Origin: Octopus vulgaris
Taxonomy: Eukaryota
NCBI GenBank assembly: GCA_951406725.2
Contig: OX597830.1
Location: 22,072,001-22,136,000, forward strand
DNA length: 64,000 nucleotides
Reading direction: 5' to 3'
The translations under genes were made by a program, and so were the position numbers. Below the pieces are notes generated by a model, which saw only the letters and a list, made by a program, of their open reading frames with translations, made no database searches and was not told where the DNA came from. The first letter of the stretch is position 1; each line of letters starts with the position of its first letter. Shown one piece after another: positions 18,401-64,000 of the stretch.

Positions 18401-21400
18401 ATCTCCTGCAACAAGTGACAATGCAAAAACACACACACACACACACTTTAATAGCCAACCATCTATATAACTACAGTTACTTAACACAACTTCACTCAAA
18501 AGTTGATGTACATCTATGTCAAGAAGTGACCTTTCTGCATCCCAATAGTAACACTTCCATATTCTGTCTCTCATATCCACACACATACACACACAACCTT
18601 CTCTCTGTCCCTACACCACCTGTTCCTATTTCCCAATGGAAATATGTTTTACTTCTTTCACTTTTGTCCCTACAACTTGAACTCACACTCCCCACAATTG
18701 AATCTATTAAGAGGAGAAAAGGAACAAACAAAGCTGATCACATATTCTTAATTCAATGGCTGACCATTTGGTTTATAAACAAAACAATGAATTCAGGATG
18801 TCTCACCCTTTCAACTGTTAATTTCATACCATTCACATGAGATTTATTCAACCACATTATACATTGCAAAGCTTCGGCCTCAGTAGACATAGTAACAAAA
18901 GCATGACATCGAGTACCAGATTTCCGTGATCGTGTAATCATTTGGCAATCCGCCACCTAAGAGAGAATAAAGAGTCAAAATTTTATGCATGAAAAATTCA
19001 GTATGTACTCAGCTTCATAGTCAACACCAACAGTATCATCCCCAATAGTAGTCCATCGGTCTCAAGAGGCCGTGGATCTGTGCCCAAAGAAATCATGTCA
19101 GCTGCTGATGGTTGTGCAGCGTCTGTTGTGGCTGTACAGACCCACACAGGAGTGGTAGTCATGCATGCTGAGACTACATCTGAAGGCGCTCTCTGCTGGT
19201 GTTGCTGATTTTTCATCCCCTCTCTTCATTCCCTTTTGCAACCTCCTCCTATCTCAGGACGTCCAGATCAAGCAACTTCATATCTCTCTTACAGACGTCT
19301 TTGAAATGAAGATGAGGTCCTCCTCATACTATTGTGCTGGTAACCAATTTCCCGTACAGGTCTTTTGGGATCCTTTCGTCTGGCATGTGATGAACATGAC
19401 CGAACCAGCTCAAACGACACTGCTGGAGCAAGAGGTGTATGCTGGGTATCTTGGCTCGGTTGAAGACTTCGGCGTTGGTGATGTGGTCAGTCCACTTGAT
19501 GTCCAAGATGCCTCTTTAATTGCGAAGGTGAAAGACGATGAGACGCCGCTCCTGTCTAGGGTAGAAGCTCCACGTCTCACTGCCATAAAGTAGCATACTT
19601 TATAGATAACAATTTGGGTGTTTGCAGCCAGATTTTTGTTTTCCAAGACTCTCTTTCTGAGCCTGGCAAATGTGGAAGATGCTTGTCCAATTTACCTGTT
19701 GATCTCAGGGTCCAGGGAGAGGTCATCAGCAATGGTAGAGCTGAGATAGGTAAATTGATGGACTACCTCGAGCTTGTAGTTGTTGATGATGATGGTGGGA
19801 GCATGCTTGACCTATTACTTGGGTCTTCTTCAGACTGACAGTCAGGCTCAATTTATGACAGGCCTTCGAGAGTTTATCCATGAGGTGTTGTGTTTGCTCT
19901 TCAGAGAGTGCTGCTGCATCGTAAGCAAACAGCATACCCTAGCGCACCCTGGATTTTGCTTTCAGCCTCAACAGACTGCCACTTGACCTGGGATGGAGGT
20001 AAACACCAGCAATTGATGTCCCAAATTCATGTTTCAGCATGACTACAAAGAAAATGTCAAATATTGTGGGGGACCAAATGACCCTCACCTTTCATTCTTT
20101 CTTTTTCTCTCTGTCTCTATTTTTTTTTTCATAGGTGCCAGATGTCAGGCCTTTGGCAACTAAACCGACAACACCATAGAGCTTGTTCTGGGAGGGTGTT
20201 TTTTCTTGCTATTTGGTCACCCTGCGGGAATAAATACAAGACCTGTCAAAAGGCAAATGGACTCTCAAGAGCCAATGGCCATCCAAATAAGCAATTATCT
20301 TTACAAGTTATACTGCTTATTAAGCCCTTATCTGCTTAAGACAGCAGCAATAAATAATGACTCCACTGCCTTGCAGCAATACCAACTTAAAGGAAAGGCT
20401 CCAGGAGTAAACCCTGAGGATAAACCAGGTGCCAGAGTCCCTAAGGCAGCTCGATGTTGTAGATAACCTTGTTCTGGCAACTCCTGCAACCGCACTGGTG
20501 CTAAGCCGTATTGGCCCCTGCCCTTCCCTTGGATAACACTGGTGGTGGTGGAGAGAGGAGACATGTCGCCAATCTCCCACGAAAAACTGCCCATCTAACC
20601 ATGGCAGCAAAACACAGAATTTGAACTCAGAACATAAAGACAATGGAATACCAAGTATTTTGCCCAGCATGCTAACATTTCTGCCAGCACGCCTCCTTCC
20701 CCAATAACAATATATCAATTCTAAATTGTCATAAGAATGATGCTGTAGATTTTAAGTAAAACTCACTTCAGGAAGCAGGAGAAGGAAATAGCCGAGATTA
20801 CCATATTTGATGGCATAAAAGACACATGGACATATTGGATGTGCCTCAATTTCAGCAGTAATACCCACAAGAGAAAGTTTTTAGTGCATTGAAGTAATAC
20901 AAGCCCAATATTGCATACAGGACTAAGGGTGACTATTTGAAATATTTCTCTAAAATGCATTTTATATACCATCAAATGCAGTAATTTTTGTTCTAGTGAT
21001 TTGAACCCAAGGAAAGGGCGGTATCTATGGTGTTAAGAGGCTCCGAGACAGCTGCAATAAAAGAATTGCAGGAAGCCAACATTCTGAGGAAAAAGGGACT
21101 GAGAATAGAGATTAGTGTGGAGTATGGGGTTAGGTTTAGAAACAAGCGAGTAAGGGCTGTTCAATTGGAAGTGACACAACACAAGCTAGCACCAAAGAAC
21201 AAGTTTTGCTCAAGTAACTAACTGTTGCAAAAGCAAAGAGAGAAGCCAACATATCTTTCGATTAGAGGTTGGAGAGTACTGGCAAGAAAATCAGATGATT
21301 TTGGGGGAGGAGTTAGAGTATATTCTGTCTCTACAGTGGAAATCCAGTCTTTGTGATTACAGGCGTTGCTATGTTGAATTTATGCGTTCACTGAGGCTAA

Positions 21401-23886
21401 GCTTTTGTAGAGACTTTGAAGGTTCAGCTGTGTGCTATTTATGTCTCGGAGACTGATGATGATGATTGTTGGCGGAGGAGTCAAGGTTGGCATAATCCTG
21501 TTGAAAAATGTTTTCAAGGACTAGGATCAAGTTAGTATAGATTTTGTACAATCTTAAGGACTATTCTTGGGGGCAAACAGTGAGATAGGATTCAATAGTA
21601 CCTACTCCTGCACAAGCTTTGTTGAAGATGATGGAAAGTAAATGACTGATGTTTAAAAAGACAAAACTAAACCTTTGGTACACCAATGTTGACAGAATGT
21701 GTGTCTAAGAAAGCTCTATGTGCAGGCTGAGTGATTTGACAGGAAATTTTCAATTAATAAACTTATGGATGGTTAGATTTGCTGAGAGACTTACAAGCCA
21801 GGCACAGTTGAAGGCATGACTGATGTCAAAGAACAACACTGTTGTTTGCACCAAAGGTTTTTGTTAAAAGTAAAACCCCACTGGTAAGAGACAAATGAAT
21901 AGGTCTGCAGCGAATACGTCTATTCAAAAGCCTTACTGGTAGTCATTAAGGAGGGAGAGACATTTAAACGGCTGGAACAGATGGTTGTTAGGACTTTCTT
22001 TATCACATTTGAAATGTTGGAAGTGAGTATAGTTCGACAATTGTTGGTGTTTGTAGCACAATTCCAAAGACTGCAATATATCATGGTGTACTTGCAACAG
22101 AGCAAACCCCATAGAAAGCATCAACGATTTTTAGGAGTGTACACATTTGATGAACCTACTGAATGAAAAAAAGAGAAAAACGCCTGACGACCCTACATGA
22201 TTACTCATTATCTGCAGGATGACAAGACACACATTAGACTGGTGTTGATATTTTGAATACTCACAAGGCTTTGATTGGCCCAGGACACTCACTCATGGTG
22301 CTATGCAGTGACAAAATTTGAAGAGATAAATTGAACGAAGCCTCTGTCTATGTGTGTGTGTGTCTGTCAGTCTCTCTCTCTGTCTGTCTTGATGTCGCAT
22401 GATTGTTGTAAATGAATGCAAAAACATGTCTGGCCATCAGGGAAATATTGCCTTGCTTGGTAACAAGTAAGGGCTGATGACAGGAAAAGCATCTGACTAG
22501 AAAATCTTCAGTAGACTCTGCCCAACCCATAAAAGCATGGAAAAGTGGATATCAAAACAATTGTGAAGACCATGACAATCATTATTAATAAATAACAATT
22601 ATTGAAGGATGAAAACAGATTTCATTCAACATACCTTGCCATATTTGCTAAAAATTGCGGTTAGGAATTTATCAGAGACATTTGCAGGAAAACCACTGAC
22701 CCACAAATTCCGATTGGCTTGGTTGTTGCCTATTAATATAAGAATGTATCAATAAATACAAAAAGATGATGAGGAAATGCAACCCAGTAAGGTCAGAATT
22801 TCAAATAATTCAAAGAAAAGCAACAAGCTTAGAAAGTAAGCAAAGAGAATGTGAGAAAACATGCAAAAGAAAAAAGAAATTACCTTTTTTGGCAGCTTTG
22901 GGCTTAGAAACCAAAGAACTGTAACAATAAAATAATTATTTAGAAATAGCATCATCATCATCAATGGAGAATTTTAAAGGACTTTAATGGATTATAATTT
23001 CAACATTGATGCAAGTGAAAACTGGCAAACCTACACCATACAACTTTACATTAATGTGCTTGATCTAAATAAATACACTGTATATCTGTGTGAGTGCATG
23101 TGTATATATATATATATACATATCAGGGACATACTGCCTGGGTGCGTGTGAAGGTGCGTGGCTCAGTGGTTAGAGCGTCAAACTTATAATCATGAGGTTG
23201 TGAGCTCGAATCCCGGACCGGGCTGCGTGTTGTGTTCTTGAGCAAGACACTTTATTTCACGTTGCTCCAGTTCTCTCAGTTGTAGAAATGAGTTGCGACG
23301 TCACAGGTGCCAAGCTGTATCGGCCCTTGCTTTTCCCTTGGATAACACTGGTGACGTGGAGAGGGGAGGCCGGTATGCATGGGCGACTGCTGGTCTTCCA
23401 TAAAACAACCTTGCCCAGACTTGTGACTAGGAAGGTAACTTTCTAGGGGCAAGCCCATGGTCAGTGTCTGACCGAAGGGGGTCACACATCACACACTGCC
23501 TGGGTAGGCAAGGTAGGCAGTACCTACCCTAAATAAAATAGATCGATAGTAATATTTTCCTTTACGGCAAAATATGCACCTAATTCAATAAAATTATGAA
23601 GGTTACTCTGATTACTATGCATAAAATACAAAATATTTTATTTTTTTGTAGATTAGGTAGGCATAATTTGTCCCTGCCTTTCAATCTCAGTATTAAAGCT
23701 ACGCATAGAACTGCTGTAGTACACATGCTGCGTACATTCCTACAACGTTTTCTTTACGTGCTATAAAAGAGTAAGTAAATCTGTCTACAACTCAATCGCA
23801 TGCCTATGTTTCACATTATTTTTTTATGTGTTTAAATACATAAAGGCACCAACCGCCTACCCTGAATAATTACTGATGGCACATGC

Positions 23887-23932
<46 letters not shown>

Positions 23933-26900
23933 TACTTACACACAAAAACCTATCTGCATTTACATATCTATTAGTTAAAAGACAGCATCTAAGTACATTA
24001 GAATGATGTTGCCGTCTTCCTAGTTAGCAAAGCATACTGAATGCTCCACAACATAAGTTTCTTACCAATATTATCAAATTAATATTGCATGTAGTGGAAA
24101 TATGATGATGAAAGAAGCTTACCTGTTGTAAAGATGTGTTTATGTAGAAGTGATTTATTATCACCTTTCAGGAATAAATGAATACAAAAGACACTAATTT
24201 CAAATGAAGATATTGGTTAAGACAATAAATGGATTACCTAAACTAGCTAACTGTCACTGCACATCAGCAATGTATGACTAACACTTATGACGAAAGATGT
24301 ACAGAAATACAGGAACTATAGTCTTCATGAAGCTAAAAAGAGGTCAGCAAGAAATGTGGAATTCCCTAAATGGTAACTGCTAATTTAGCAGGAACATGGC
24401 TGGAATACGAACACAATTAACTTAGTCTTCTGGTTTTCCAAACATCTTCCAATTTGTATCTTGTCAGAAAAATTATTAATTATCTAATATCCACTGAGTC
24501 ATGTCTATATTCTTGGGGACTCAGGATCCCCACCTCCTCTGCTTCAGGTGTTTGTTGTCATCTTCATCCAAACAGACATTTTTGTTTCTTGACATTGGTT
24601 AATCTGTTCTTGTAGTTAATCTGTCACTAATTCGGTAATCACATCTAACATTGAGCATGCGTAATAACACAGCCAAGCCCCAAACAATTTGCTGGCCTCT
24701 TTTTATTTCATGAACTATAGTTTATAATAACCAAGTAAAATATGATGAATATTTACTAATATAAGTAGTGCAACATTAACTACCAACTATTCATATTGGG
24801 ATCACCACATGCCCCCACCCAAAACACTACATTAATCTGTTAAGAGACTATAGCAAATAAACATGGAGGAAACATAGGCTTTAACGAGAAACTAACGGAA
24901 AGATATTGTGACATGTTTAGGTCAGTTATGGCCCAGGCTATGTTGTACTTACTTGTACCACCACAGTACAATCATTATAGTATATTTTTATGCTTTCTGA
25001 AGACTAGAGAGATGTCTACCATATTGTTAGTAGTCTGGAATTCAACCCAACACTCAAACCAGATATATGCACACCCTCACACATTCTGTTTTAAAATAAC
25101 TCACGATTAGCCACAAGAGGATGTTTGAAGACAGGTTAGCTTAAGGTTCAAGAAAATCTGTCCCCTTTGGCAGTTGTAGACCTCACTTTCAACAAAGGTA
25201 TCAACATCTGTTACCGAGAAGTAAGATCATTTAACTAATGACATCTTTGAATCAAAGCAGTGGGAAAGATGACATGAAAACCAACCTCTTCGACTTTACA
25301 TCTTTATCATCTTTCTTTTCATCAGCCTTCTTCTCAGTTTGCCCTCCTTCTGGTTTACCTTTAGCCCTTTCTTCAACTTTGCTTCCATCTGTTTTCTTCA
25401 CTTCAGTTTTGCCACTCACTTTGTCCATTGATGCATTGTCCGTTTTATTATTTGTCTTTGATGCCACAATATCAGCATCTAAATCATTCTGTGTATCATC
25501 AACATGCAGAATCAACGATTCATTTTCTTCACTCTTTCGAGCGATGGATGTGTCCATGTTGATTGTGTCTTCTAATGTTAATGGAGCTATGCAAGGAACA
25601 CTGGTAGGTGTTGGAGGTAAACTGTCTGAGAAAGATGCAATGACCACTTCATCTTTAAGTTCATTAGAATTTAGTGGCAGAGTGGCAATTCTCATACGGG
25701 CTGATGAAGACTTTTCGCTATTTTCTTCTTTTATATTATTCTCTGTTGATGAAGACGACTGTTCTGGCGGTGCTACAGAAAGTTAATTTAGAATGAAATA
25801 GTTGACAGGAAATGAACATTTGTTAAATTTCACTCCACAACAGACTGTGCTGTGTTGAGAGTTTAAATAGAAAATATAGAAAGAAATAAAGAAAACATTA
25901 CTAATAAAAGCTTTTAGTCTAGTAATCCTACAGGATCAACAGACTATAAGCTCTAAAGCTGAAATATGGATAATAATTATATTTCACATAGAAACTTTTG
26001 TGTCAAATTTTCACTCCATATGTCTTCAGTGGTATTGCTCTCAATACACATACAAAAGTTATTTGGACAGATCAAAATATACCACTTGTACAATGGCAAG
26101 CTATTTGATCAGAGACATAATAAAATAACTGTGCTAAGGTTTGAAACTCATCACCAAGTCATCAGTTGTTCAGAAACCTAACTTCTCAGTCAAACTTCCT
26201 GTAAATTATATTACATTATTTTCCACTGAACCAGAAGGAACAGAGTATTCTGTAGCATTAAATGGATGAGAGTTGAATGAGCCCCTGAACAAGATGTCAG
26301 TCAGTTGCCAGCCAGATCTGTAGATGTTGAGCTTTTCTCTACATCTAGAAGAACTGAGGCCCATGAAAGTGTCCTGCTCAAATATAATGAAATACTTGAA
26401 GGACAAGCTGGTCTTCTAATGAATTCTCACTGAAGCTATTTTGCATCTCGAATGCAAACACACAAACACACACATAATTGAGTGGCACATCTAATCAGTC
26501 GCAAGCGTATGAACCACGTCTCTATATAATATTTTGATGCACCGATTTCTACTGAACTTTCTCTTTCACAGTTGCACACTTTGTTACAAGGCACAGATGG
26601 AGTTGTTCTCCAGTGAAGTGCTGTTACAAGACACAACTAAGACCTAGCCTCATGCACAATACCTTAGGAGAACAGTATAATTGCTGACAAATTCACAGTC
26701 ACTGACTCCCAAGTTGTGCTACATATAAGGATCAAAGTAGTGGTTAACAGAGAGCAATGAATCAAGATTTCTTCCCTTTATTTCCAGTTTTCAACGTCCT
26801 TTGACTAAACTGGAACAATTTTTTTTAAAACAAACATACATAAATGTACAAAAGATATGTTTAAACTTTGTAAGGTGCACCAGGTATTTGTGAACACAAC

Positions 26901-29900: not shown

Positions 29901-32900
29901 CCCCTATCTTACTTTGTACTATATATATATATATATATATATAAAATAATAAAGTATATACTCAAATTCTATACATCTACAGCTATTTTAAAACTAAATA
30001 TTAACCTAAGTAAAAGTTTGTATGTGATACTACATCATATAGCATAAACAAAGAAAATGTAGCTATTCCTTTACCTAAAGCTATACATACACTCACATTA
30101 AATATATTGAAGCACAAGAGCCAGAATCTTTATGGCAACTCTGCTACTGCATTGCAAATATGCAATACAAATTATAGTCATTTCAAGTTTTGCAATAATA
30201 AAGGAATACCAAAGCCCTCTTACATAGTATATAACTTGAATAGTGGCTCCTAAAATTAATAATTTGTGGCTCCAGAAACACAAAATGGACCAGAGACTCT
30301 TCAAAGTCAGCTACTAGCTCAGCAAAGTATAATTCTCTCTTCAATCTAAACTGTACAAACCAATTGCCAACGCCAAAGACAATGGTAGAGAGAAAGTAAA
30401 CATTCTTCAAATAACACCTCATACCAGATTAGTAGTTGACTGCCATATACGGAACCAATATAATTCATTCTAAACCAAAACTTCATATAAAGTATACTTA
30501 ATACAAACCTTTATGAGCAACACGGAAACGATAGTTTGTGTCAATATTGTAGATTTGTGTTTTGTTATTTTCATTGAGACAATGAAACAACTGATATAGG
30601 GTCAATCTAAGTATACAATAAACCGACTAGTTTAGGAAATTTAAAGAAAGTGAATTACATACCTGTGGTATTCTTTAATGGATCATCAGATTGTCCCTTG
30701 AAAGTGAAGAAAGAAAATAACTGACATGACTAATAGCAACAAATGAAGGAAAATATATACAGTATTAGTACATTTTTCATCTTTACTTTCATTAGTATTA
30801 TGTCAAATTGGTTATCTTTATATGTAATATAATTGTGTATATGTGAATCAAGATATTTTGTCTTCAAATGTTTTTATGTTTCAAGAATTGTAAGTAGAAT
30901 TTATAATTGGTTAACTGTGATATATATAGGAAACTGCTGAATAGCAAGTAAAATAATTTTCATATTAATTAAATCATAACATATCTAACACTAATTACCA
31001 ATTATGAAATGAAAGTAATAACTTGCACTAAAACAAGTAGTGCAATATAGTTAGTAGAACAATGTAAAAGGTGTAGTAAATTTTAATTACCTGCAAAACA
31101 GTTCCAGTGTCTTTGTTTGTATCTGAGGAAGAGATAGGTAGTTCCTCTTTAAACTGGTCTTTATCAAAGGTGTTATCTGCCAACATATCTGATGGTTTGG
31201 TATCACTTGAAAGCAGTTGATCTTCAGAAAGGTCTTCCACAGAAGTTTTGTCAGAGAGCAAAGAGTAACCATTTGAATTGGTAGTGTTTAACAACACATC
31301 TGTTAATGCCACATTAGCCGTCTCTGATTCTTTCTGAAAATTAAAACAAAACAAGTTTCTGTTAACCATCAACATTAAATCATCCTATATTTATCCTTTG
31401 CTCACTGTAATATCCATTAGTACCTTATTCTTATTGAATGCTTAACTTATTACTGTATTCCATTTTTACTATAATGATTTTTATAGTATTATTATAGAAT
31501 AATAGTACTTTCTGTGCTACAGGTAAAGCTCTTTTCAGTTATGAAACTCAATTGTTATTAATGACCAGAGTACGTCTGTGTACTTCACTGGTCTTTTTCA
31601 TGGATAGCATTATGAAACTGACATTGAAATTCTAACACTAAAGTAAACTAAGTGAACACATCACAGTAAAGTATGGTCACCAGGTGAGATCCAGTGTTTC
31701 TGAATCCTAGCAGTTTTTGCAACTTTGCAGGTTAAGCACTAAAAAGGGTTCAGTTCAAGATTATTTCCTAATATGTGCAATGATTCTGTCTTTGCTGAAT
31801 GAGTAAAGATTATCATGTACCCAGTGGAGAATGCTTCCCACTGTTTTATTCATGGAAACAATGGAGGCTTGATAGGAGCTGTTTAGGTAATGTGTGGTTG
31901 ATATCAAAGTAGAGAAGATAAATTAAATGGCATTATAAGCATAGGAATTGGGTGTTGTTAGGTGACAAGTAGATCATTTTATAAAACTGAGAGGTGGACT
32001 TGGTAGACAGAAAATTAAAGAAGCCCATTGAGTATGTGTATATTTGTGTACATATATATGGGTGTATACCACAATCTGTCAGGAACCTCCTGACTCAAAG
32101 GACAAGTGATGGACTGATCCCAAAATTGAGATTAGAATTGCTCCAGCCAAACGCAACAACATTATTTTTGTCAAGTTTCTCAAGAGTGAAGGACCACTGC
32201 TAATTGGCATACACTAGCAAGGCTGGTAAGTCAGACAGTTGCAATTCCTATTTACATTATAAATCTGTTATCTAGCTGATCCACACTTCTCCACTCATAC
32301 ACAATCTTTTTAAGCCTTGCAGTGTCACACTGTTGGACCTGCTTTATTAGCTCTCTTCATCTCATCACATTCTTCTTGTCTCACTAGAGTGTCAATCTAC
32401 TAGCAATTCTTTCATCTTATTACAATACATGTCTTCAGTCCATAAAGACCTATCTGGTTTCATCACTGCTCTCAAACAATAAACCAGAAGAATAATAAAT
32501 ATGTTTTCAAACACTTTCCCCAGCACCACCAATGTGTATCATGTAAGTTACTCTTCATTTGGAGCACCAAAAATGTACATTGACAAATAGTCCACGTATT
32601 GTAGCTGGCGTTCTCATGTGTTGTAGTTTATCATAGCTGATTTGTAAACATGTGCCACACCCCACTCCTGGGGGGGGGGGGTAGAATTTTATTGAAATCC
32701 AATTTGCCTATAATTCAGTAATGTATGCACACATAATTGTAAACAATTATCCCAGACTACTATACGAATCATAAAGTTGGAAACTAATGTGCTACCAACA
32801 ATAACATGACCACAGTGTCCAAGAAACAATAAATTTCTATACTAAGACAGGGAAAATGAATGAGTATTTTAATTGCAAATAATTAGCCATGGGCTCCTTC

Positions 32901-35900
32901 TCAAAACACAAAGTGGCAAACACCACCAAAAAAAAAATAGTATACTAAACAATGACAAATGGAAAATATGTAGAAGAAAGAAATTATCTACAAAAATATG
33001 ACAGAATTTACCAACCTCATCCATGTTGTCTGTAGTATGCTCATTTTCTAGAAATAAAAATAATTTAACATCAATTTAGTAATTTCAATATTATATATCA
33101 TTCAGTAACACACACACACAAAGCTTATATTACACACACCTGAACAGAGACACAAAAACAGTTATACACAGCTGTACATGGCATAACATTGAGTTAATCA
33201 CACATTACATAATACTGTTACATCTAACCAGTTTAAAATTCGGTTTCAAACACCTGAATATGAGAACATTGTATTACATATTAACTAGTTAAAAAAGCAT
33301 GAAACAAAGTTGCTGTTTTATATCCAATTATCACATTAACAATGGCAGAAAGGGTTTTAATGTACTTCTTGCCCATAAGGTATATTACTGTCAAATGGGA
33401 ATGGAACTTGTTAGCTCAGTAGACAGAGACAACACAGTTTGCTAAGAACAACACATCTAATATATTTACAGTCTAAAATAAAATTATCATGACTTATACA
33501 TCTCCCGTAGAGGCATATGGCCTAGTGGTTAGAGCAGCGGACTCACAGACAAGGGATTGCAGGTTCGAATCTCAGACTTGGCGATGTGTATGTTTATGAG
33601 TGAAACACCTAAGCTCCACGTGGCTCCGGCAGAAGGTAATGGCAAACTTCTGCTGACTCTTTCACCACAACTTTCTTTCACTCATTCCTCCTGCATCTTG
33701 CAGCTCACCTGCGACAGACCGGTGTCCCGTCCAGGTGTGCAACCTATACGTCAAGGAAACCGGCCCTTATGAGCCAGGCATGGTTCAAGAAGGAGCAAAC
33801 AACAATACATCTCACAGTGTTATCACCAATGTTCTTGCAAGAATCATCATCATTTAACATCCATCTTTGATGCTGGCATAGGTTGAATAGTTTGACAGGA
33901 TCCAACAGAGCCAGAGAATTGTGTCAAGCTCCTATGTTAGCTCTGGCATGGTTTGGATGCCCTTCCAAATGTCAACCACTGTACTCATTGTTCTAGGTGC
34001 TTTTTTCATAACACCAACACTAGGGATGTCACCAAGTAACTTGCAAGAGAAAGGAAAAGAACCTAGCATTGAATGGGATTGTAATAGATTTGGAAGTTAT
34101 GCCAGGTGTTGAGAGGAATGATAATGAGACAGGTACAGGTGTTTTATAAAGAAAATACATGGCTACCCCACATTATGTAAGGGTGGATAGGAGTAAGTGG
34201 AAAGACAGTGACAAAGTGTCAGAGAATACTCTCAAGATAAAACAAGGTGAGTATAGGGGAGAATATGGACAGCAGGTCAGGACATGTGGGTGGGTATGTT
34301 AATCACAGTGAGAAATGAGTGATAGCATATGGTTAGAGATGGGGGGCAGGTGGATGTAGTGAAGGAACAATGCTGGAGGTGTGGTTGATGGTCAATATGT
34401 GTATCAGAAGAAAAGGAATAGCTCAAGAAGGAAGAGGTGACAAGTGGCAGTGCAAGAAGGGTAGAATGCATAGTATAATAAACCTGTAGGCAGATAAAAA
34501 AATAGGAAGATTATGAAAGGCAGACATGGGAGAGAAAGAGATGTTCAATGACAGAGATTAATGTCAGAAGTACTAGGGATGGCTATAGAGAATAGGAGAC
34601 AAAGGTATGGGGAGGCCATCAACAGCAGACACAAGATGTTATGAGAATGAGAGCAGATACAATGTGTTAAAGACAAGTTACGGCAGTCTTAAGATGTAGC
34701 TCAGAGAAAGTGAAGGAAAGCAATAAGTAGAGGCACAGATACAGGTGATTGGTCAACAATAAATTTTGAAACACAGATGACACATCATCATCATCATCGT
34801 TTAGCGTCCGCTTTCCATGCTGGCATGGGTTGGACAGTGCAACTGGGGTCTGGGAAGCCAGAAGGCTGTACCAGGCCCAGTCTGATCTGGCAATGTTTCT
34901 ACGGCTGGATGCCCTTCCTAACGCCAACCACTCCATGAGTGTAGTGGGTGCTTTTTACGTGCCCCTGGCACAGGTGCCAGACGAGGCTGGCAAACAGCCA
35001 CGGTCGGATGGTGCTTTTTACATGCCACCGGCACGGAGGCCGGGCGAGGCTGGCAACGGCCATGATCGGATGGTGCTTTTTATCAATATATATATTTCTT
35101 TACCACCCACAAGGGCCAAACAAGGACAGACAAATGGATTAAGTCGATTACATCAACTCCAGTGCGTTACTGGTACTTAATTTATCGACCCCGAAAGGAT
35201 AAAAGGCAAAGTCGACCTCGGCGGAATTTGAACTCAGAACGTAACGGCAGACGAAATACGGCTACGCATTTTGCCCGGCATGCTAACGTTTCTGCCAGCT
35301 CGCCGCCAATATATCAATATATATGCACACATCCTTAACATACATATAAACACATATACAAAATCTATATCTGTATCATTAACTATATAATTCTGATACT
35401 TACTAATATCTTCAGTAGATTGATTTTCTTCCAGACATTTCTCTTCAGAGTGAGTCTAGAATTGTCAAAATATCAAGTTAAGGCTGTTAAAAAGTCTCGC
35501 GAAAGTGACACATTTTATACAATTTGTTATATGTAATTAGAATGAGATGTACATGTGAGAGTAAGTTGAAGAAGCAAGAAAATGAAAGTATTGAGAAAAA
35601 TGCTGACAGAAAACGTGCAGCAGTGGCTGTGTGGTAAGTAGCTTGTTTACCAACCACATGGTTCCGGGTTCAGTCCCACTGCGTGGCACCTTGGGTAAGT
35701 GTCTTCTACTATAGCCTCGGGCCGACCAAAGCCTTGTGAGTGGATTTGGTAGACGGAAACTGAAAGAAGCCTGTCGTATATATGTATATATATATGTGTG
35801 TGTGTGTGTGTCTGTGTTTGTCCCCCTAGCATTGCTTGACATTGCTGGTGTGTTTATGTCCCCGTTACTTAGCGGTTCGGCAAAAGAGACCGATAAAATA

Positions 35901-46400: not shown

Positions 46401-46872
46401 TCTCCATATATTACATTCTATGTAGTCTCTTTTCACTTCTTTATTACATTCTGTGGTTGCTCTTCTTCCTCTCTCCCCCACTTTAGTAAATACAATGTAT
46501 CTGGGCTCCTTTCCCTCCTCTTTCATTAATATATAACAACTGTGGAAATGTGTGTGTGTGTCAGGAATAACAGTATAAAATATAGCAACAAATTTGAAGG
46601 AAATAAATATATTAAGACAGTAATGTAAGAGGGAGTAGAGTGGAGATAGGGAGAAGACAATGTGTGTGTGTGTGTGTGCATGCATTAAAATATGGAAGGA
46701 CAGAAATATGATTGGATGTCCAACAACCAAGCACTACGTGACAAATGGAATGCAGGATGTGGATGATATATTGGCTGGAGGGCAAGGTTTTATTATCTGT
46801 CTCAGAGACCTTCTGCACCTCTAAAATCAAACACCTCACCATGACTTCACACTTTAGTCCTCAGTTTGGATT

Positions 46873-47222
46873 TCACATAGATCCCATAATACTGTAAGCA
46901 TCAAAACGAGGTTCTTGCATACGTCCACTCGTATTACTACCACTACCACCTCCACCACCACGTGTAACCATCATGATCCCACTATGTGACTGAGAGTTGC
47001 CAAATGTGTTACCAGATCCCAAGTTCTGCCCCATCCCACCACTATTACCGGGTCTGCTATTGTCTACAAATGCCCCACTGGCATCACGCCCCGTTTTCTC
47101 CATGGGGTCACCAAGCCATGGTTCACTGGGTTGGTCCATGTCTCCATGCATGTGGGACCAGTTGTCCACTTTCCTATCTACACTGCCAGAACCCCAAGAA
47201 GATCTCTGGTCTGGTCCACCAC
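46873..47222 (-). CDS. SAFB: SAFB-B last coding exon, G-rich tail ending [12 protein letters not shown]
   Basis: ctttcag acceptor; ORF 46873-47169. Confidence 0.9.
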
Positions 47223-50200
47223 CTGAAAGGAAGAAGGCAGAAAATGCACTAATGAATACACGAATATGAAAAATAAAGACTGAAAGGAATTAATGTCAAA
47301 ATAAAATGAAGAGAATATTGATGAAAAGAAAAGACAAGAGATATGGAGAAGACTAGGGCTTAACTCTTTAGCATTCAGATTACTCTGTTGAAAGTAATGC
47401 TTTTTCATTCACATTGTTTTGAATTAGTCATGCATTATCTTGTAGCTTCAAGATTTTGATGAAGTGATTGTTTATTTTGAGAATAACAGGGGAAGTGTGG
47501 GAGGCCAGATCTAGTTGAACATAAGACAAGTAAAATATCTGGGCCCAATATCAGTGGTTTAAGTGCTACAGAGTTAAAAGAAAGAAATAGAGAAGGACAG
47601 CTACAGAATGCTTTAAGAAGTGGGTGAAATTTTACTTGAGAGAGAGAGAGAGATGATCAAAAGAAGTGAGTGGAAGCTTACCAAAAGAATTTCTCACCCT
47701 GCCCAATCTATTGTGAGCTGATATACTTCGTCGGTCATTATCACGTCCTCGATCGGAACCAACATATCTTTTATCAGGCTCTCCACTTGGTCCCATATCT
47801 CTTCTTAATTCAAAGGGCATCCTGGATGTGGAGGTAAACCAGATACAAAATTAACAAATTACTTTATGAGTGTTTAGCAACATACTGTACAAGGGACAAT
47901 GTACACAACCTGAGCAATTGATCAACTTTCACCTATACAGAACCTTGTTCACATCAACACTGACCCATGTGGAGACTGGCATACACACCAACATTAACCT
48001 CTAACAGAGATTGGTGTATACACCAAAACTAACCAGCATGGAGGCTAATGTGTGCATAAACTTTGACTGATATGAAGGATAAGGTTTGTAACAATAGCCA
48101 GACACCAGCTAGCGTGTAGAACAATAGTGATCAGTAGAAAGATACAAAATCAAAACAAAAAAGTCAGGTTTAAAAATACAAATTACCGGTTGAGCTTTTC
48201 ATCTGTTCGAGAACGGTCTTCAGTTCGTCTTTCATCTCTGACTCGAATATCTCGGAAAGGACCCATTTCCCTTCGCATCATTTCTCTTTCTTTACGTTCA
48301 TCATAGCGACTTCCACCTTCCAAAGATCTACTGTCTCTTCTACCATAATCAGTGTTCTCATATTCATTATAGCTGAAAGAGAAAAAGAAAGATGAAATTA
48401 AATAAGTATCCAATATACAACAAGATATGACAACTATTATGTTGATGCTTACTGAGTCAGAAACAAATGTCTAGAGCTGTCCTCTTGCTTGCAGAGAAAG
48501 CAGACTGCCTTTTCCTTAATGGTATAACAATTTCAGAGAAAGGCAGTGAGCTGGCAGAATCATTAGCACGACGGGCGAAATGCTTAGTGGTATTTCGTCT
48601 GCCACTACGTTCAAATTCTGCCAAGGTCGACTTTGCCTTTCATCCTTTTGGGGTCGATTAAATAAGTACCAGTTACGCACTGGGGTCGATATAATAGACT
48701 TAATCCGTTTGTCTGTCCTTGTTTGTCCTCTCTGTGTTTAGCCCCTTGTGGGTAGTAAAGAAATAGGTATAACAATTTCAGAGAACTCTTGGTTCTTGAG
48801 ATTGTATCTCTTCATTCAGAATCAGTAGCAATTACCAGCAGGTCTTGGTTTACCTTCTCCCAAAGCAACAACAGAATTGATTTTGTATAGTATTTAGAAT
48901 ACCTTTGTTCACTTTGTTGTCAAAATAGAAGCTACTGACCGAGTTAAGACACACACCTTACATTTACAAACAGGATTATATACCTTAAATATAATTTAAC
49001 CTCTCGTCACTTCGCATACAGTTGCCTCCTTCTTTACTGTGGTCCCGCTCAGTTGAATGAAAAAAAGCACTTAGTTCAAAGAAACCATGCTAAAACAGAT
49101 ACTGGAGCATGATGCAGTCCTCCATTCCATCAGGTCCTGTCAAATCATCCATGTCAGTGAGGAATACCAGAGCCACTTTCAGAGCTGTCCTGAGGCTGTG
49201 GTGGAGGATGAGAGAAGCCACTCTAGCTGAAGAATTATCTTGCAGATATAATCTAGTTGGTATTTTTTGATTTTTTAAAAATACTTTTATTTTTCAATGG
49301 GACAGTGTTTTCTTTCCTTTTACTGTTAAACTGTTAAATTTAGCCTCAATAATCTCTAAGCATACACATATAAAACAGGCCAAAGATATTGTGAAATGCA
49401 AATGAAACTTTAATTTAAAACACTAGCCAGGTAATAAGGAATCAATGACAACATATCAACTTCACCACTCACAACTTACCGTGACTCATTCTGGAATGGA
49501 AGTTCAAATCTAGAGTGGTTGCCAGAACCGATCATCCTGGATCGTTTAGGTTCGTCCCAGAGTTCATCACGAAGACGGTTTCGATCATGAGGTCTTTTTG
49601 CAGGATGTCTCATTTCATTTAACCTGATATTAAACAAAAAAAAACAGCAAAATCAAGTAAAGAACAGCTGTATTGAATGACAAGCAGCTAAAGGATAAGA
49701 TAAAGATAGTAAACAACCTTAACTTTCAACAATCAACCACCAGGACACCAGTTTCAATAACAAGGTTGCCTTTATGCAGTCCTCAAACACCAGAACCAGC
49801 ATGCAAAATGTCCTCAAATTATCCCCAACTGTCTTGAGAGAAAAACAAAATGTTGGATGCACTGGCTAATGTAGTCCAACTTTATGTCTGAGAGAAGAAA
49901 AACAAAGCTCGAACACCTGAGCTGACTTAGGGCTAAACAAACCCACCACCAATGAGCTGATATCTACATAACAAAAATAAGGCAATAAACAGCCCCAAAA
50001 TCAAGATTATGCGATGACATACCAAAACAGATAATGGACTTAATTTATTGCTACTAAGTAGCTAAAGACCATCACAGTAAATAATTTCATGTCAATATAT
50101 AAAATTGCTTTGTAGACCTGCTGTTGTCATTCATTGTGTCAATACTGATCTACAACGTAAAGTACTCATTTCAGTCATGAGCAGTGGAATATGGCGATTT

Positions 50201-53000
50201 GGCTGTTATTGCTAGCAGATCAAGCTGCTACAACACATACATGCTTCCACAAAGTGGTTTTGTTGCTGTTTTTTTTTTATTAATGTGACTGCCACCTAAA
50301 AAGCACCTGTGCTAGAGCCACATGTGAAGCATCCATGTTGTTGCTCCGTAAAAAGCACCCGGTACATTCTGTAAAGTGGTTGCATTAGGAAAGGCATCCA
50401 GTCATAGATACTATGCCAAAACAGACAAATGGACACTAGTGCAGCTCTCTGACTGGCCAGTTCCTGTGAAACCGTCCAACCCATGCCAGCAGGGAAACGG
50501 ACATTATGTGATGATGATGATGAATGGTTGTGTTTAGGCCAATGGATAAGTTAAGTCAGATGTGATGTGAACACCACTGGTTCATTGTCTTGTTTCCTCT
50601 ATCATGAGATCAACAGATCAGCATTACAACATCTTTACATACACAAGAATCCCATTTGAGATTACTTTCCACAATTAGGAAAAGTCCTACATCCTAATCC
50701 CCAATCCAACAAACAAAACAAACATGAAATTATCCAAGGGTAAATAAAATATAATTCAATCAAATAGGTTGTATCAAAGACACCAAGAAAAAAAAAGCAA
50801 TAAGTTTATCATAAGTATTTAGAAACTTTGAGAGGATGTGAAATAATTCATTCTTATCTGTAGAGCTCGAAGAAGATGAAGCTACAAAATAATGACATGT
50901 AAATATTGGGTTCAAAACGTTTTGGGATAGAAAAAGTCAAAGGCTGCCTGTCGGACAATGGTAGAATATCTGTCAAATTTACAGATGTAGGTTCATGCTC
51001 AAGAGCAGCCTTTTGGCGTTTCCTGTCCAAAAGGGTTCTTAACCCAATATTTACATTATGTTATTTATGGTTTCGTCTACTTTAAGTTCTACCGATAAAA
51101 AATAATCATTAAGTTCACAGCATAAGAGTAACAACATAACTTATCTCACTTACCGCATCTCTACATCACGCCTTTCCATTTCAAGAAGTTCTTTTTCCAT
51201 TCTGTATCTTAATAGCTTCTCTTTCTCCAGCTTCATTTTCTCCAGTTTCATTCTCTCTAACCTGAAAAATGTGAAAGAACATAAAGATAACATTAAGAAT
51301 TTAAACAGAAAATAAAAATGAAAATGACAATCCTTGTATGTACCCTGACATGTTACTCTGCCAGAATATCCAAGAAACGTTCTTTTGAAACTAGAGGAAA
51401 TTAAGTATTTGTCACCTTTAAAAACACATTTCGCCCCTAGGAAAAGGGAAGTGAGTCAAGTAGATAAAATAATAGATAGAGCATCAGTCTGCTAAACAAC
51501 AAACTATCATCACTGTGAGATGGACAAAGAGACTTCAGCCTTAAATAAAGATTCACCCAACACTTAATAAGTACCATGTGGAGCTATCATTTTCAAACAC
51601 AAAATACATAAATAATATAGTACTACAGATAACCTCTCCACAAAAAAGGGGGAACGGTTAAACTTATAAGGTCTTTGATCATAGGCCTGAATGATAACAA
51701 TACAAAGAAAAGTTCACTACAAGAACAGAGAAACTGTCTAATAATCATCTCTTGAAAGGGTATCGAGAAAAACTGCTCCAAATATGTCAGCTTCTCTTTA
51801 TCTCGAAACATAGGCTAAAATTTACAATGGTATCCCACCCAACCCAGTGGATTATTAAATCTTAAGAAAAAATTATCAAGAGATAATACAATTTAAACAT
51901 CATCATCATCATTTAGCGTCCGCTTTCCATGCTAGCATGGGTTGGACAGTTCAACTAGGGGTCTGGGAGGCCAGAAGGCTGCACCAGGCCCAGTTTGATC
52001 TGGCAATGTTTCTATGGCTGGATGCCCTTCCTAACGCCAACCACTCCGTGAGTGTAGTGGGTGCTTTTTATGTGCCAGACGGGGCTGGTAAACGGCCATA
52101 GTCGGATGGTGCTTTTTACGTGCCTCCGACATGGGGGCCAGGCGAGGCTGGCAACGGCCACGTTCGGATGGTTTGCTTACGTGCCACCAGCACTGGTATC
52201 ACAGCTACAATTTCCATTGATGTTGATCGATTTTGATTTTGATTCTGATTCTCACTTGCCTCAACAGAGAATATAAAATTTTGAACCCAATATTTACACG
52301 TTACTTATATTATAAATAGTTAAAAAGAGAAACCACTTAATATATCTTACATGCTCTAATCTTTACTTTTTTTCTTTCTTTTACCATTCATTTAAAATGT
52401 CTTAGCCCTGCTTTTGTGAAAATTTCCAAATTCTTCATAAATCACAATTACTATCTAAAAGATCTTTAAAATGGTTTTGTGGCTTATAAAAGGAAGAGCA
52501 GTACCCAAGGTATATTTTTTCAGCGTCCCCAAGACTGATTAGAAGAAGGGAAGAAGCTATCCTTAGATTAGAGACCTGGACTGAAAGCTTGAAAAAGTGT
52601 GTACTCTGCAAAGGGCATCCAAGGATCAGATGTGCTCTTAAAGAGAACAACACAATAATAGTACCAGCAAAAACAGGGATGGTCCCACCTCAGACAGCTT
52701 TAAACATAGTTTCTGGCTAAATTACGTTATGAGTACTATAGTTGTCAAAAACAATGCACATGTATTTGTTTATGTTTCTGAAGAAGATTGTCGCTTTCCG
52801 TAAAAATTAAAAATTTTTTTTCATATATGTGGGGTGGGGAGAAGAGGATCATTTGAAGTTGGCATAAAAGCAAAAGAGACAGAGAGAGCAAGATTGGATC
52901 GGGGAAGTTCTTTTGAAGTTGGCATGCCGTGTGTTTGTGTGTGTGTGTATGTGAGAGAGAGAGAGAGAGGTTCTCTATGTATGTATGAATGGCTTCAGTG

Positions 53001-53031
<31 letters not shown>

Positions 53032-53075
53032 GATATATATGTATCTATATATATATATGCATAAATGGATGTATC

Positions 53076-53125
<50 letters not shown>

Positions 53126-62100: not shown

Positions 62101-62888
62101 AGCTGCCTTGTTTGTAAGAGTGCTTTTTCTCTAAGTATTTCAGGCTGTATGCTTTGCATGAAATGCTGCAACACAGCTAAGACTGAACCACTTAGAGAAC
62201 CTGAGACAATACTTTTGGTTTTGCATGGGATATAAAGGGACATGCCAAAGAGTATGTTTTCTGTCACCTGCCTAGCTGTCTCTGATGGGTCCAGATTCAA
62301 GCATGTATGTCAAAGAAAATAGTGTAGAACTGGTGGAGTTCTAACCAATCTGCTATAAACTAAAGTGCCAAAGAGTTCAAGTGAGCAGGGAAGGTATGTC
62401 AAGCAGTACATGGATATGTTGTGGACAACCACACACAAAGCAGAGAGTGGTGGTGGTTTGACAGTGGCTACATTTGGAGAAGAGAAAGTTGTTTAGAGTG
62501 TAAACACACACTAGACTAGTATAAATAGTGTGAATATAAGTACTAATTAGTAATAAATATGATTAGTAAAAAATTACATGAAATAGAAGAAACAAATTTT
62601 ATTCAACATACCTTGCCATATTTGGTAAAAAGCACTTTAAGGTCTGTAGCACGGGTACTTGTGGCAAGACCACTGACCCACAGATTTCGATTACTTTGGT
62701 CATTGCCTATTAAGTACAGAAATAAACTAATATGAAAAGATTACCAGGAAACCAGACCCTGTAAGATTAAAATTTCAAATACCTCACATTTAAAACAAAA
62801 GCTTAGTGAATAAGATTCAGAACATGTAGAATAATAAAAAAACTTACTTCTCATATTCTTGATAACTTTGGGTTTAGAAGCTGAAGAA
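46873..62888 (-). CDS. SAFB: SAFB/SLTM-family protein, paralog B (canonical RRM); 5'-partial, upstream exons lie outside the window
   Basis: Exons 62848-62888, 62612-62706, 59683-59832, 58124-58205, 57252-57383, 56517-56707, 55405-55565, 53822-53947, 51154-51261, 49480-49623, 48187-48372, 47682-47821, 46873-47222, all phase-compatible [53 protein letters not shown] closely matches the vertebrate SAFB RRM as I recall it. Confidence 0.92.
47682..47821 (-). CDS. SAFB: SAFB-B exon ([14 protein letters not shown]...VRNSF)
   Basis: tccag / G|gtaagc. Confidence 0.87.
48187..48372 (-). CDS. SAFB: SAFB-B R/D/E-rich exon
   Basis: Within ORF 48183-48413; tttcag / CG|gtaatt. Confidence 0.87.
48541..48765 (+). 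mobile_element. SINE family B with 20-bp TSD
   Basis: TSD ggtataacaatttcagagaa at 48521-48540 and 48766-48785; other copies at 6561-6790(+), 8335-8525(-), 16965-17135(-), 35095-35306(-). Confidence 0.85.
49480..49623 (-). CDS. SAFB: SAFB-B exon ([27 protein letters not shown]...FQNESR)
   Basis: atcag / CG|gtaagt; phase 2 to 2. Confidence 0.87.
50850..51101. mobile_element. Old degenerate hairpin MITE
   Basis: Imperfect inverted arms of about 95 bp (tgtaaatattgggtt / aacccaatatttaca; aaaggctgc / gcagccttt). Confidence 0.55.
51154..51261 (-). CDS. SAFB: SAFB-B coiled-coil exon, duplicate 2 ([15 protein letters not shown]...DVEMR)
   Basis: tttttcag / CG|gtaagt, symmetric phase 2 to 2. Confidence 0.78.
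51900..52265 (-). mobile_element. SINE family C with (gat)n tail
   Basis: catcatcat..gcgtccgctttccatgctagcatgggttggac; copies at 1-190, 16810-16940, 34783-35082, 45176-45326, 50300-50522. Confidence 0.75.
52715..53561. mobile_element. Decayed Merlin-like foldback MITE
   Basis: TSD tagtttct / tagtttcc; right end aaagatcgcc matches the 40818 family TIR; empty site at about 55229 in the duplicated unit. Confidence 0.75.
53738..53787 (-). CDS. SAFB: SAFB-B candidate alternative mini-exon made by duplication ([17 protein letters not shown])
   Basis: Copy of the 3' third of exon 55405-55565, with a junction-created ttacag acceptor and a retained AG|gtttgt donor; use unproven. Confidence 0.35.
53822..53947 (-). 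CDS. SAFB: SAFB-B coiled-coil exon, duplicate 1 ([15 protein letters not shown]...SAEMLR)
   Basis: ttttcag / CG|gtaagt, symmetric phase 2 to 2. Confidence 0.78.
55405..55565 (-). CDS. SAFB: SAFB-B coiled-coil exon ([10 protein letters not shown]...KVRENIR)
   Basis: 161 nt, phase 0 to 2. Confidence 0.85.
56517..56707 (-). CDS. SAFB: SAFB-B exon (DKSHATT...[11 protein letters not shown])
   Basis: tttcag acceptor, AAA|gtaagt donor; ILSFDEIK resembles the SAFB-family SFDKVK motif. Confidence 0.85.
57252..57383 (-). CDS. SAFB: SAFB-B K/R/S-rich exon (EKKDGDKK...SRSRHKSS)
   Basis: tttgcag acceptor, CAG|gtcagt donor, phase 1 to 1. Confidence 0.82.
58124..58205 (-). CDS. SAFB: SAFB-B exon ([27 protein letters not shown])
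   Basis: tttttag acceptor, G|gtatga donor, phase 0 to 1. Confidence 0.82.
58380..59480 (+). mobile_element. Decayed non-LTR retrotransposon of the RLE (Hero/NeSL/R2-like) group
   Basis: [25 protein letters not shown] matches the WLDLANAYGSVPH RT motif. Confidence 0.55.
59683..59832 (-). CDS. SAFB: SAFB-B RRM exon b ([50 protein letters not shown])
   Basis: Canonical SAFB RNP1 RCYGFVTM; catcag / AGG|gtgagt splice sites. Confidence 0.95.
59949..60343 (+). mobile_element. SINE family A, full length
   Basis: Consensus match. Confidence 0.85.
60660..62480 (-). mobile_element. Decayed CR1/L2-like LINE
   Basis: RT core relic ...LCLYINDLF...HPYVDDTF in ORF 61088-61339. Confidence 0.65.
62612..62706 (-). 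CDS. SAFB: SAFB-B RRM exon a ([27 protein letters not shown])
   Basis: Canonical SAFB RNP2 and helix 1; aatag / AAG|gtatgt splice sites. Confidence 0.95.
62848..62888 (-). CDS. SAFB: SAFB-B exon ([13 protein letters not shown])
   Basis: ttgcag acceptor, gtaagt donor, phase 2 to 1. Confidence 0.8.
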
Positions 62889-63283
62889 CTGCAACAATAA
62901 AACAATCATTGAGAAATATCAGAATGATGATTATCACTAATGAATGTCATAGAAGTGTATTGGAACAATTTTTCATCATTCATATGAATTAAATATAATT
63001 AGCAAAGTCAAACAATATCACTCCATTCTAGGACCCTAACTCTAAATAGATTTGTAGAGATACATATTTAAGAAAACAAATAAGGGCTATGTATGTATGT
63101 ATATAGACATATACATATGCACTTCTTAAAGAAATTTTTATTATGTAAGGGAGAAAGAATGATGCAATAGAATAACTAATATTTAGCAAAGCATAGACAT
63201 TCCACACACTATGTAGTAATGTAAATATTTATATTAACATCATATTGCATATAGGGGAAAGCATAATGATAGAAGAAGCTTAC

Positions 63284-63514
63284 CTGCTGCAAAGATGTGT
63301 TTTTGTAATAGTCATTTATTATCCCCTTTCAGGAATAAATGAATACAAAAGACACTAATTTCAAATGAAGATATTGGTGAAGACAATAAATGGATTACCT
63401 AAACTAGCTAACAACTGACACCACACATCAGCAACATGTGACCAACACTTATGAAGAAAAATGTACAAAAATACAAGAACTATAGTCTTCATGAAGCTAA
63501 AAAGAGGTCAGCAA
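63284..63514 (-). promoter_or_regulatory. Candidate conserved poison cassette exon in SAFB-B
   Basis: Same acceptor (exon starts 63496) and donors (after 63399 and 63284); in-frame TGA in the long form, frameshift in the short form. Confidence 0.6.
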
Positions 63515-64000
63515 GCAATGTGGAATTCCCTAAAGATTAACTGCTAATTTAGCAGGAACATGGCTGGAATACAGGAATCTTAAACTCAGACTTTTTGCTT
63601 TCCAAACATCTTCCAATTTGTATCTTGTCAAAAACATTTATTATCTAACATCGACTAAGTCCTGTCATTTTATTCTTGGGAACTTCAGGATCCCTCCTAT
63701 TCCTCCTCTGCTTCAATTGTAGTTGCCATCTTCGTCAAAACAGATAATTTGGCTTCTTGATATTGGTTAATCTGTTCCTGTGGAGAATGCGTCAGTAATT
63801 TGGTAATCACTTAACATCTGACTCTGAGAATGTGCAATTATATTTCAACTGAGACTCCTGACCCCAGCCAACCCCCGAACACTTTGCTGGCCCTTTTTAG
63901 TTCATGAACTATAGTTTACGATAACCATCTAAAATATGATGAATACTAGCGCAACATTAACTAGCAAACATCCTCATTGGTATCATCCATCACATGTACA

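Follow-up and report, generated by a model that had tools for sequence, protein, structure and literature searches.

SAFB Gene Cluster and Its Block-Bearing Intron

The window, i.e., the whole stretch of 64,000 nt of Octopus vulgaris DNA that was analysed (G000:C17:22072001-22136000; positions below are counted from its first base), carries part of a cluster of genes encoding scaffold attachment factor B (SAFB). The exon of paralog A that precedes the element considered here encodes part of protein P0001, named scaffold attachment factor B1 (SAFB1) in this species, which contains a SAP domain and an RRM. A preliminary description had placed a conserved intronic block of about 300 nt in two paralogs, A (24113-24410) and B; this number has to be replaced, since a genome search with the block as query returns six matches, all inside 210 kb, and mapping of the window and the adjacent 200 kb resolves six tandem SAFB paralogs, with A, B, and C on the minus strand and D, E, and F on the plus strand. 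The cluster spans G000:C17:22.08-22.31 Mb, occupies 9000-42100 and 46800-64000 of the window, and comprises the SAFB locus ids L007-L026 and, for copy E, L002. In a quick protein tree, each of the six copies has a best-matching protein in O. sinensis and copies C, D, and F have one in O. bimaculoides; therefore, the cluster is not an assembly artefact. The coding exons needed to follow the intron are listed below.

25286..25772, minus strand: large coding exon of paralog A upstream of the intron (100% match to P0001; spliced to 22918 in contigs)
22884..22918, minus strand: 35-nt coding exon of paralog A downstream of the intron (contig splicing and alignment)
22635..22729, minus strand: RRM exon 1 of paralog A, 95 nt (contig splicing and alignment)
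18807..18956, minus strand: RRM exon 2 of paralog A, 150 nt, strongly diverged (alignment)
62848..62888, minus strand: 41-nt coding exon of paralog B downstream of the intron (contigs and alignment)
62612..62706, minus strand: RRM exon 1 of paralog B (alignment)

The O. vulgaris model of copy C (P0045, P0046) is fused to an unrelated N-terminus of 320 aa, which is a separate gene in the O. sinensis annotation and which looks retroelement-derived. Other cephalopod SAFB proteins include the more distant P0011, with two RRMs in tandem, and two near-identical copies in Argonauta (P0013, P0051), these being independent duplications within cephalopods.

The RRMs of the six copies do not evolve alike. 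Those of A and E differ from those of B, C, D, and F with dN of about 0.43 and dN/dS of 0.8-1.25, and differ from each other at 14/95 and 20/150 positions of the two RRM exons (dN 0.14), a pattern that suggests remodelling of both under relaxed or positive selection. It had been claimed that the block is more conserved than the RRM exons, which is true for pairs that include A or E (between A and B, 27/95 differences in RRM exon 1 and 55/150 in RRM exon 2 versus 25/298 in the block), but not among B, C, D, and F, in which RRM exon 2 differs at 0-3/150 positions and exon 1 at 3-13/95 versus 15-30 of about 290 in the block. Thus, the contrast arises because the RRMs of A and E evolve fast.

Candidate Cryptic Exon within the Block

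The introns that hold the block measure 1608-2497 nt across the six copies. The block contains an acceptor and two donors, all at the sites first proposed, and the alignment also bears out the proposed exon lengths of 95 or 210 nt in A and 98 or 213 nt in B.

24238..24332, minus strand: candidate cryptic exon of A, short form, 95 nt, ending at donor 1, TAG/GTAATC (sequence model)
24123..24332, minus strand: candidate cryptic exon of A, long form, 210 nt, ending at donor 2, CAG/GTAAGC (sequence model)
63284..63496, minus strand: candidate cryptic exon of B, 213 nt (sequence model)
Ending at 63399, minus strand: candidate cryptic exon of B, short form, 98 nt (sequence model)
24366..24367, minus strand: possible alternative acceptor, a second AG 33 nt before the main one and present in 6/6 copies (alignment)
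24154..24159, minus strand: hexamer AATAAA, in D replaced by ATTAAA, found in each of the six copies 29-37 nt ahead of donor 2 (alignment)

The acceptor AG is present in 5/6 copies and reads AA in copy E; donor 1 keeps its GT in 6/6 copies and is altered in C and F, while donor 2 is kept in 6/6. At the motif level, the two donors and the second conserved AG, 33 nt upstream, make up a set of competing splice sites within the intron. The substitution from AG to AA in copy E (L002) falls inside the predicted helix described below as helix 1, and A-to-I editing might restore the AG there, in the manner of ADAR2.

Inclusion of the candidate exon in the mRNA was expected to cause a premature stop or a frameshift upstream of the RRM, and all 12 of the 12 modelled combinations of copy and donor do stop before the RRM. 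The short form of A has an in-frame stop at 24280-24278, and that of B (98 nt) shifts the frame and leads to a stop in the next exon. Among the 48 cluster members listed, there is no annotated truncated isoform of fitting length and name, and none of the proteins examined (two sets of 13, as listed) has the cassette peptide at its C-terminal end.

Contigs of RNA-Like Runs across the Intron

Of the 24 runs listed, none of which is recorded as RNA, 20 contain all or some of the stretch; seven were examined, as contigs only, five of them guessed to be RNA (X1, X5, X6, X9, and X12) and two of undefined kind (X18 and X20). Assembled contigs drop rare forms, and their depth cannot rank the parts of a gene. 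The skipped form, with 25286 joined to 22918, appears in 3/4 RNA-like runs on A, the next junction, across the intron after the 22918 exon, is joined in 4/4, and the skipped form of the B type occurs in one (X5) of the two RNA-like runs on B. No junction into the acceptor or out of either donor is present in the five RNA-like runs, whose contigs drop rare forms. The upstream intron is covered by contigs of 575-734 nt in 4/4 runs on A, contigs pass unspliced over donor 2 in 4/4 runs on A and, for B, in X5, and a single X12 contig does so over both the acceptor and donor 1. This pattern fits a partly retained intron, and pre-mRNA or DNA could give the same. The bins 22751-22867 and 22985-23101 have no cover in 4/4 runs on A, and the next-intron bin of B, which X18 and X20 do cover, has none in 2/2 RNA-like runs, although missing cover proves nothing in either case. 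Elsewhere in the intron of A, an interspersed repeat with a SINE-like look is inserted at 23180-23480 and shows very high contig depth in the RNA-like runs.

The hexamer before donor 2 raises the question of polyadenylation. The block might be a composite last exon, where cleavage would follow AATAAA unless U1 binds donor 2, so that a truncated, RRM-less message would result. The position of the hexamer 29-37 nt before donor 2 in 6/6 copies, its replacement in D by ATTAAA, another common hexamer, and the 2-4 TGTA motifs per copy speak for such an exon, as does the activation of intronic poly(A) sites upon loss of SAFB in human cells, reported in the passages of PMC10901741. Nevertheless, such hexamers are common in AT-rich sequence and six invariant bases are not unexpected at a background of 79%, the contigs cross donor 2 in all four runs on A and in X5 on B, and the helix over the acceptor would be left unexplained; a role as a composite last exon therefore seems quite improbable.

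Constraint and Gene Conversion

The segments 24164-24251 of A and 63325-63412 of B differ at 1 of 88 nt, precisely as originally reported, but this is the best piece of one pair, since A and C differ at 12/88 positions and B and C at 13/88. The whole intron is alignable among the copies, and the block is slowed rather than ultraconserved: between A and B, 25/298 positions differ in the block versus 165/758 in the upstream intron (Fisher p = 1e-7), i.e., an approximately 2.5-fold slower rate. Among the six paralogs, 223/277 columns of the block are invariant versus 489/735 in the flank (p = 6e-6), figures to be read with the block having been picked for being conserved and with copies that are not independent, because they go back to one origin and the block of A is 99% identical to that of E. 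Divergence of the block is down about two-fold in all deep paralog pairs, and 38 of its 54 variable sites carry a change confined to one lineage (C, A/E, F, or D). Counted per 30 columns, invariance peaks at 26-30 in 24404-24315, dips to background in 24314-24249, stays at 23-26 onward to donor 2, and falls to 4-11 within 70 nt beyond it.

It had been proposed to distinguish selection from gene conversion by where the identity ends. Conservation ends just past donor 2, and there is no significant run of agreement inside the block in any pair; a conversion run between A and B within the block is not significant (p = 0.08). Gene conversion is, to judge from sequence patterns, active in the SAFB cluster, with significant runs of agreement upstream of the block in B-C, B-D, B-F, and D-F (p 0.0002-0.0014) and A-B intronic windows of 94-98% identity at 31400-31900 and 33800-34300. 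At these two positions, intronic tracts of A are 92-99% identical to B or D, and they are probably conversion tracts or unannotated exons.

The upstream runs, the A-B windows, and the 99% identity of A and E over a block whose adjoining RRM exons differ at 14/95 and 20/150 positions would all be expected if the block had no function and young duplicates were homogenised by gene conversion, an old inverted duplication giving rise to the complementarity described below. However, all deep pairs are reduced about two-fold, no block run is significant, and most changes are lineage-private. Moreover, two base-for-base matching peaks around a diverged loop are unlike a conversion tract, neither the 441-nt element nor a 20-mer taken from its arm was found outside the six genes at the sensitivity of the search, and, among non-exon windows, the acceptor window comes 1st of 23 in the comparison with C, shares 1st place of 59 in that with F, and is 9th of 65 in that with B. 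A functionless block thus appears very improbable, and constraint seems the better reading, with substitutions reduced on all lineages; in this respect, the proposal of a cryptic stop-bearing exon held under constraint in a SAFB intron is supported.

Other origins were also considered. An intronic ncRNA of a known Rfam family was rejected, as there are 0 matches at the gathering score in the window, and the best match in 23950-25500 (E = 1.5) lies outside the block and at chance level. A repeat or MITE origin was likewise rejected, as the 441-nt element and the 20-mer occur only in the six SAFB genes; the search for dispersed DNA copies skips very common words, and the negative holds at that sensitivity. 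In a comparison across species with runs X18 and X20, which are close and whose contigs are not surely assignable to paralogs, the block is contained and is not visibly better kept than its flank (for X20, the stretch 1522-1757 shows 12 differing letters with 17 gaps, and 1790-2226 shows 21 with 22).

Predicted Long-Range Helix over the Acceptor

Folding of the whole upstream intron of each copy predicts a helix (helix 1) of 31-35 bp in 6/6 copies (43 with an extension in D), with a mean pair probability of 0.82-0.96, in which a 5' arm located 340-390 nt upstream pairs, across a loop of the same length, with a 3' arm that spans the pyrimidine tract and the AG together with the preceding CUGAC motif and the first 18-19 exon bases. 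The elements concerned are the following.

24689..24722, minus strand: 5' arm of helix 1 in A (inverted repeat I3; mean pair probability 0.92; 31/33 ungapped columns invariant)
24314..24350, minus strand: 3' arm of helix 1 in A (folding; 36/37 columns invariant)
63884..63916, minus strand: 5' arm of helix 1 in B (folding)
63478..63514, minus strand: 3' arm of helix 1 in B, over the acceptor (folding)
63853..63869, minus strand: 5' arm of helix 2 in B (pairs with 63579-63562; 17 bp; pair probability 1.00)
24398..24408, minus strand: 3' arm of helix 2 in A (alignment and folding; pairs in B, C, D, and F)
24377..24391, minus strand: 6-bp local hairpin, same pairs in 6/6 copies (folding)

An inverted-repeat scan matches the acceptor region to 24705-24689 at 16/17 positions, and this segment falls in a second conservation peak at 24786-24668. 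The arm columns are invariant at 31/33 and 36/37 positions versus 141/228 in the loop (p = 8e-5 and 2e-6). The duplex energy of helix 1 is -37.9 to -40.6 kcal/mol, with z of -4.9 to -6.9 across the copies and 0/200 dinucleotide shuffles as good in each copy, whereas 12 constitutive acceptors of the same genes form much weaker duplexes (-15 to -26). Among the 79 intron windows of copy B, the arms of helix 1 take the first four places, while in copy A windows in simple and interspersed repeats score equal to or above them, and the folding energy of the region as a whole is ordinary (z -0.28). A nested helix of 17 bp, helix 2, is predicted to form in B, C, D, and F, its 5' arm being partly deleted in A and E. 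Further possible pairings of the upstream peak with the region of donor 1 (24745-24800 with 24200-24245) occur in some copies only.

The substitutions within the helices are few. Of 50 helix pairs, 42 are invariant, 6 carry one-sided changes that keep pairing (A-U/G-U), and 2 break; that 6/8 variable pairs keep pairing is a weak signal (p 0.03-0.09 under an assumed null), and covariation is not demonstrated, because 0/50 pairs change on both sides among the six paralogs. A local consensus fold of the block alone, from which the upstream arm is absent, likewise has 0/77 pairs with a two-sided change.

The pyrimidine tract and the AG are about 90% paired in the prediction, and the A of CUGAC (24344) is unpaired opposite a C, a mismatch kept in 6/6 copies. 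This adenosine lies 12 nt from the AG, which is shorter than the usual branch-point distance. The conserved core of the block would then correspond to the 3' arm of helix 1, with the acceptor masked by long-range pairing, a feature that the preliminary description overlooked. In 6/6 copies, at least 7 continuous pairs with the branch A or its neighbour paired are predicted around the candidate branch motif, which is how the passages of PMC11162794 define a concealed branch site, with helix 1 lying outside the 120-nt window of that paper.

A helix of this kind could also be real and serve as a double-stranded substrate or scaffold, for ADAR, for Microprocessor, or for a looping that speeds intron removal, with the splice motifs being incidental. 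Consistent with this, invariance in the block is highest precisely where it is paired, even over 18 exon bases that are dispensable for a poison exon, the A-C mismatch is kept in all copies, and copy E retains helix 1 without the acceptor AG. On the other hand, a mismatched A with a 5' G is a context disfavoured by ADAR, the loop of 340-390 nt is unlike that of a pri-miRNA, no change appears at 24344 among the contig rows listed, and conservation runs 200 nt past the helix to end just after the strong donor kept in 6/6 copies. Despite the link of SAFB to Microprocessor found in literature listings, we regard a substrate or scaffold role as unlikely. The pyrimidine tract and the AG could possibly be a by-product of pairing with the purine-rich arm.

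Upstream Donor and Purine-Rich Exon End

Conservation in this region is highest outside the block, in a run across the donor of the upstream exon.

25201..25352, minus strand: 152-nt run identical in six paralogs, across the weak donor GAG/GTTGGT (alignment)

Read-through of this donor reaches a stop at 25254-25252, after 11 codons. The last 215 nt of the upstream exon of A are 73% purine and contain 4 GAAGA motifs, and the cassette contains 1. Over 25201-25500, the exon end and the first 85 intron bases are almost identical in the six copies, longer identical tracts are nested around them (about 600 nt in B-C), and a donor-like G/GTAACA occurs 72 nt into the intron. Run X20 has one contig of higher depth over 25201-25500, as if the paralogs were collapsed. 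This segment may represent either a further regulatory element, acting at the weak donor, or a hotspot of conversion.

Comparison with Known Systems

Poison exons gated by RNA structure are known from human and fly genes. A literature search, with most subscription papers outside its scope, returned no structure-gated poison exon for a SAFB gene or for octopus and no description of the octopus SAFB cluster. By analogy, the octopus element may work like the concealed stem of SF3B3, the paired regions of BRD2 and BRD3, and the decoy exons of SF3B1 and OGT.

The likeness to SF3B3, in the passages of PMC11162794, lies in a conserved helix that holds the branch-site motif beside a stop-bearing cassette in a splicing-related gene; opening of that stem raises poison exon inclusion. 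However, the SF3B3 stem is local, with 14-17 bp and a loop of 5-8 nt, whereas the octopus helix is predicted to have 31-35 bp and a loop of 340-390 nt and, unlike that of SF3B3, also covers the pyrimidine tract, the AG, and 18 exon bases. BRD2 exon 3b and BRD3 exon 5b, as presented in the passages of PMC10789245, share with the octopus element a long-range duplex of comparable strength (there of -29 and -34 kcal/mol, in octopus of -36 to -38), conservation peaks that end with the complementarity, too little variation for covariation, and a setting in paralogous genes. In contrast to the octopus arm, which overlaps the acceptor, their arms lie on either side of the exon, which is thereby looped out, and the BRD paralogs gained their arms independently, whereas the octopus element was inherited by all six copies.

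The decoy exons of SF3B1 intron 4, OGT, and ARGLU1, in the passages of PMC6097662, are also conserved cryptic cassettes with competing sites in introns longer than 1 kb, and they show unspliced transcripts and junctions that are rare without an NMD block, although retention and U2AF binding were measured there, while in octopus the comparison extends to contig cover only. A masking helix is a feature of the octopus element that is absent from the decoy-exon account in those passages.

Regarding the gene family itself, human SAFB1, SAFB2, and SLTM share the SAP and RRM architecture, and the passages of PMC10901741 report that loss of one paralog raises another, give no mechanism for this compensation, and state a single SAFB for invertebrates, versus six in octopus. 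GAAGA-type motifs are bound by SAFB according to passages of PMC10901741 and PMC4689037. Among the rows listed of the PMC11162794 supplement, the SAFB and SLTM entries are local, weak stems at other acceptors, and the PMC11632617 supplement gives no cryptic exon for SAFB and, for SLTM, a single exon (1b) that is protein-coding. By eye, a pair of short motifs, of 8 and 10 bases, appears in the same order before a human SAFB acceptor in the PMC11162794 supplement and at 24350-24385. As the exon numbering would place the human site one intron upstream, their sharing is probably due to chance.

Proposed Function in SAFB Expression

Taken together, the block may be a structure-gated cryptic poison or decoy exon in six octopus SAFB genes, a reading to which we assign a probability of roughly 0.55. 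The six copies, the slowed evolution, the two complementary conserved arms, the stops, and the unspliced contigs come directly from the analysis, and the loss of the AG in E, the altered donor 1 in C and F, the short spacing of 12 nt between CUGAC and the AG, and the lack of inclusion junctions among the contigs of the five RNA-like runs are points against a gated exon. When the helix is closed, U2AF and U2 would be unable to load, the exon would be skipped, and a full-length mRNA would be made. When it is open, or is still to form while the gene is being transcribed, the weak upstream donor would face competition from the acceptor and the strong donor 2, and this competition would yield a retained intron or an included exon, each with an early stop. 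Because of that stop, nuclear detention or NMD is the proposed fate of both forms, and the switch would likely limit the amount of SAFB protein.

SAFB itself might set this switch by binding the purine-rich exon end, a tentative and somewhat doubtful suggestion put forward because of the purine-rich exon end itself, the 152-nt identity in six copies, and the literature on GAAGA binding and paralog compensation. A broader and fairly unlikely extension is that the six SAFB genes form one dosage loop, in which SAFB bound to the purine-rich exon end would decide the use of the poison exon or intron and in which A and E, with their remodelled RRMs, would stay under the control of the canonical copies. 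If true, such a loop would give the so far unexplained compensation among SAFB paralogs a concrete mechanism, and would account for the six-fold multiplication of a transposon-restricting factor without overdose. The balance among SAFB paralogs becomes testable, because the element names the exact bases to mutate. Moreover, six copies in one cluster, two of them with fast-evolving RRMs, do not fit the statement, in the passages of PMC10901741, that invertebrates have one SAFB, and this cluster may be the more surprising fact.
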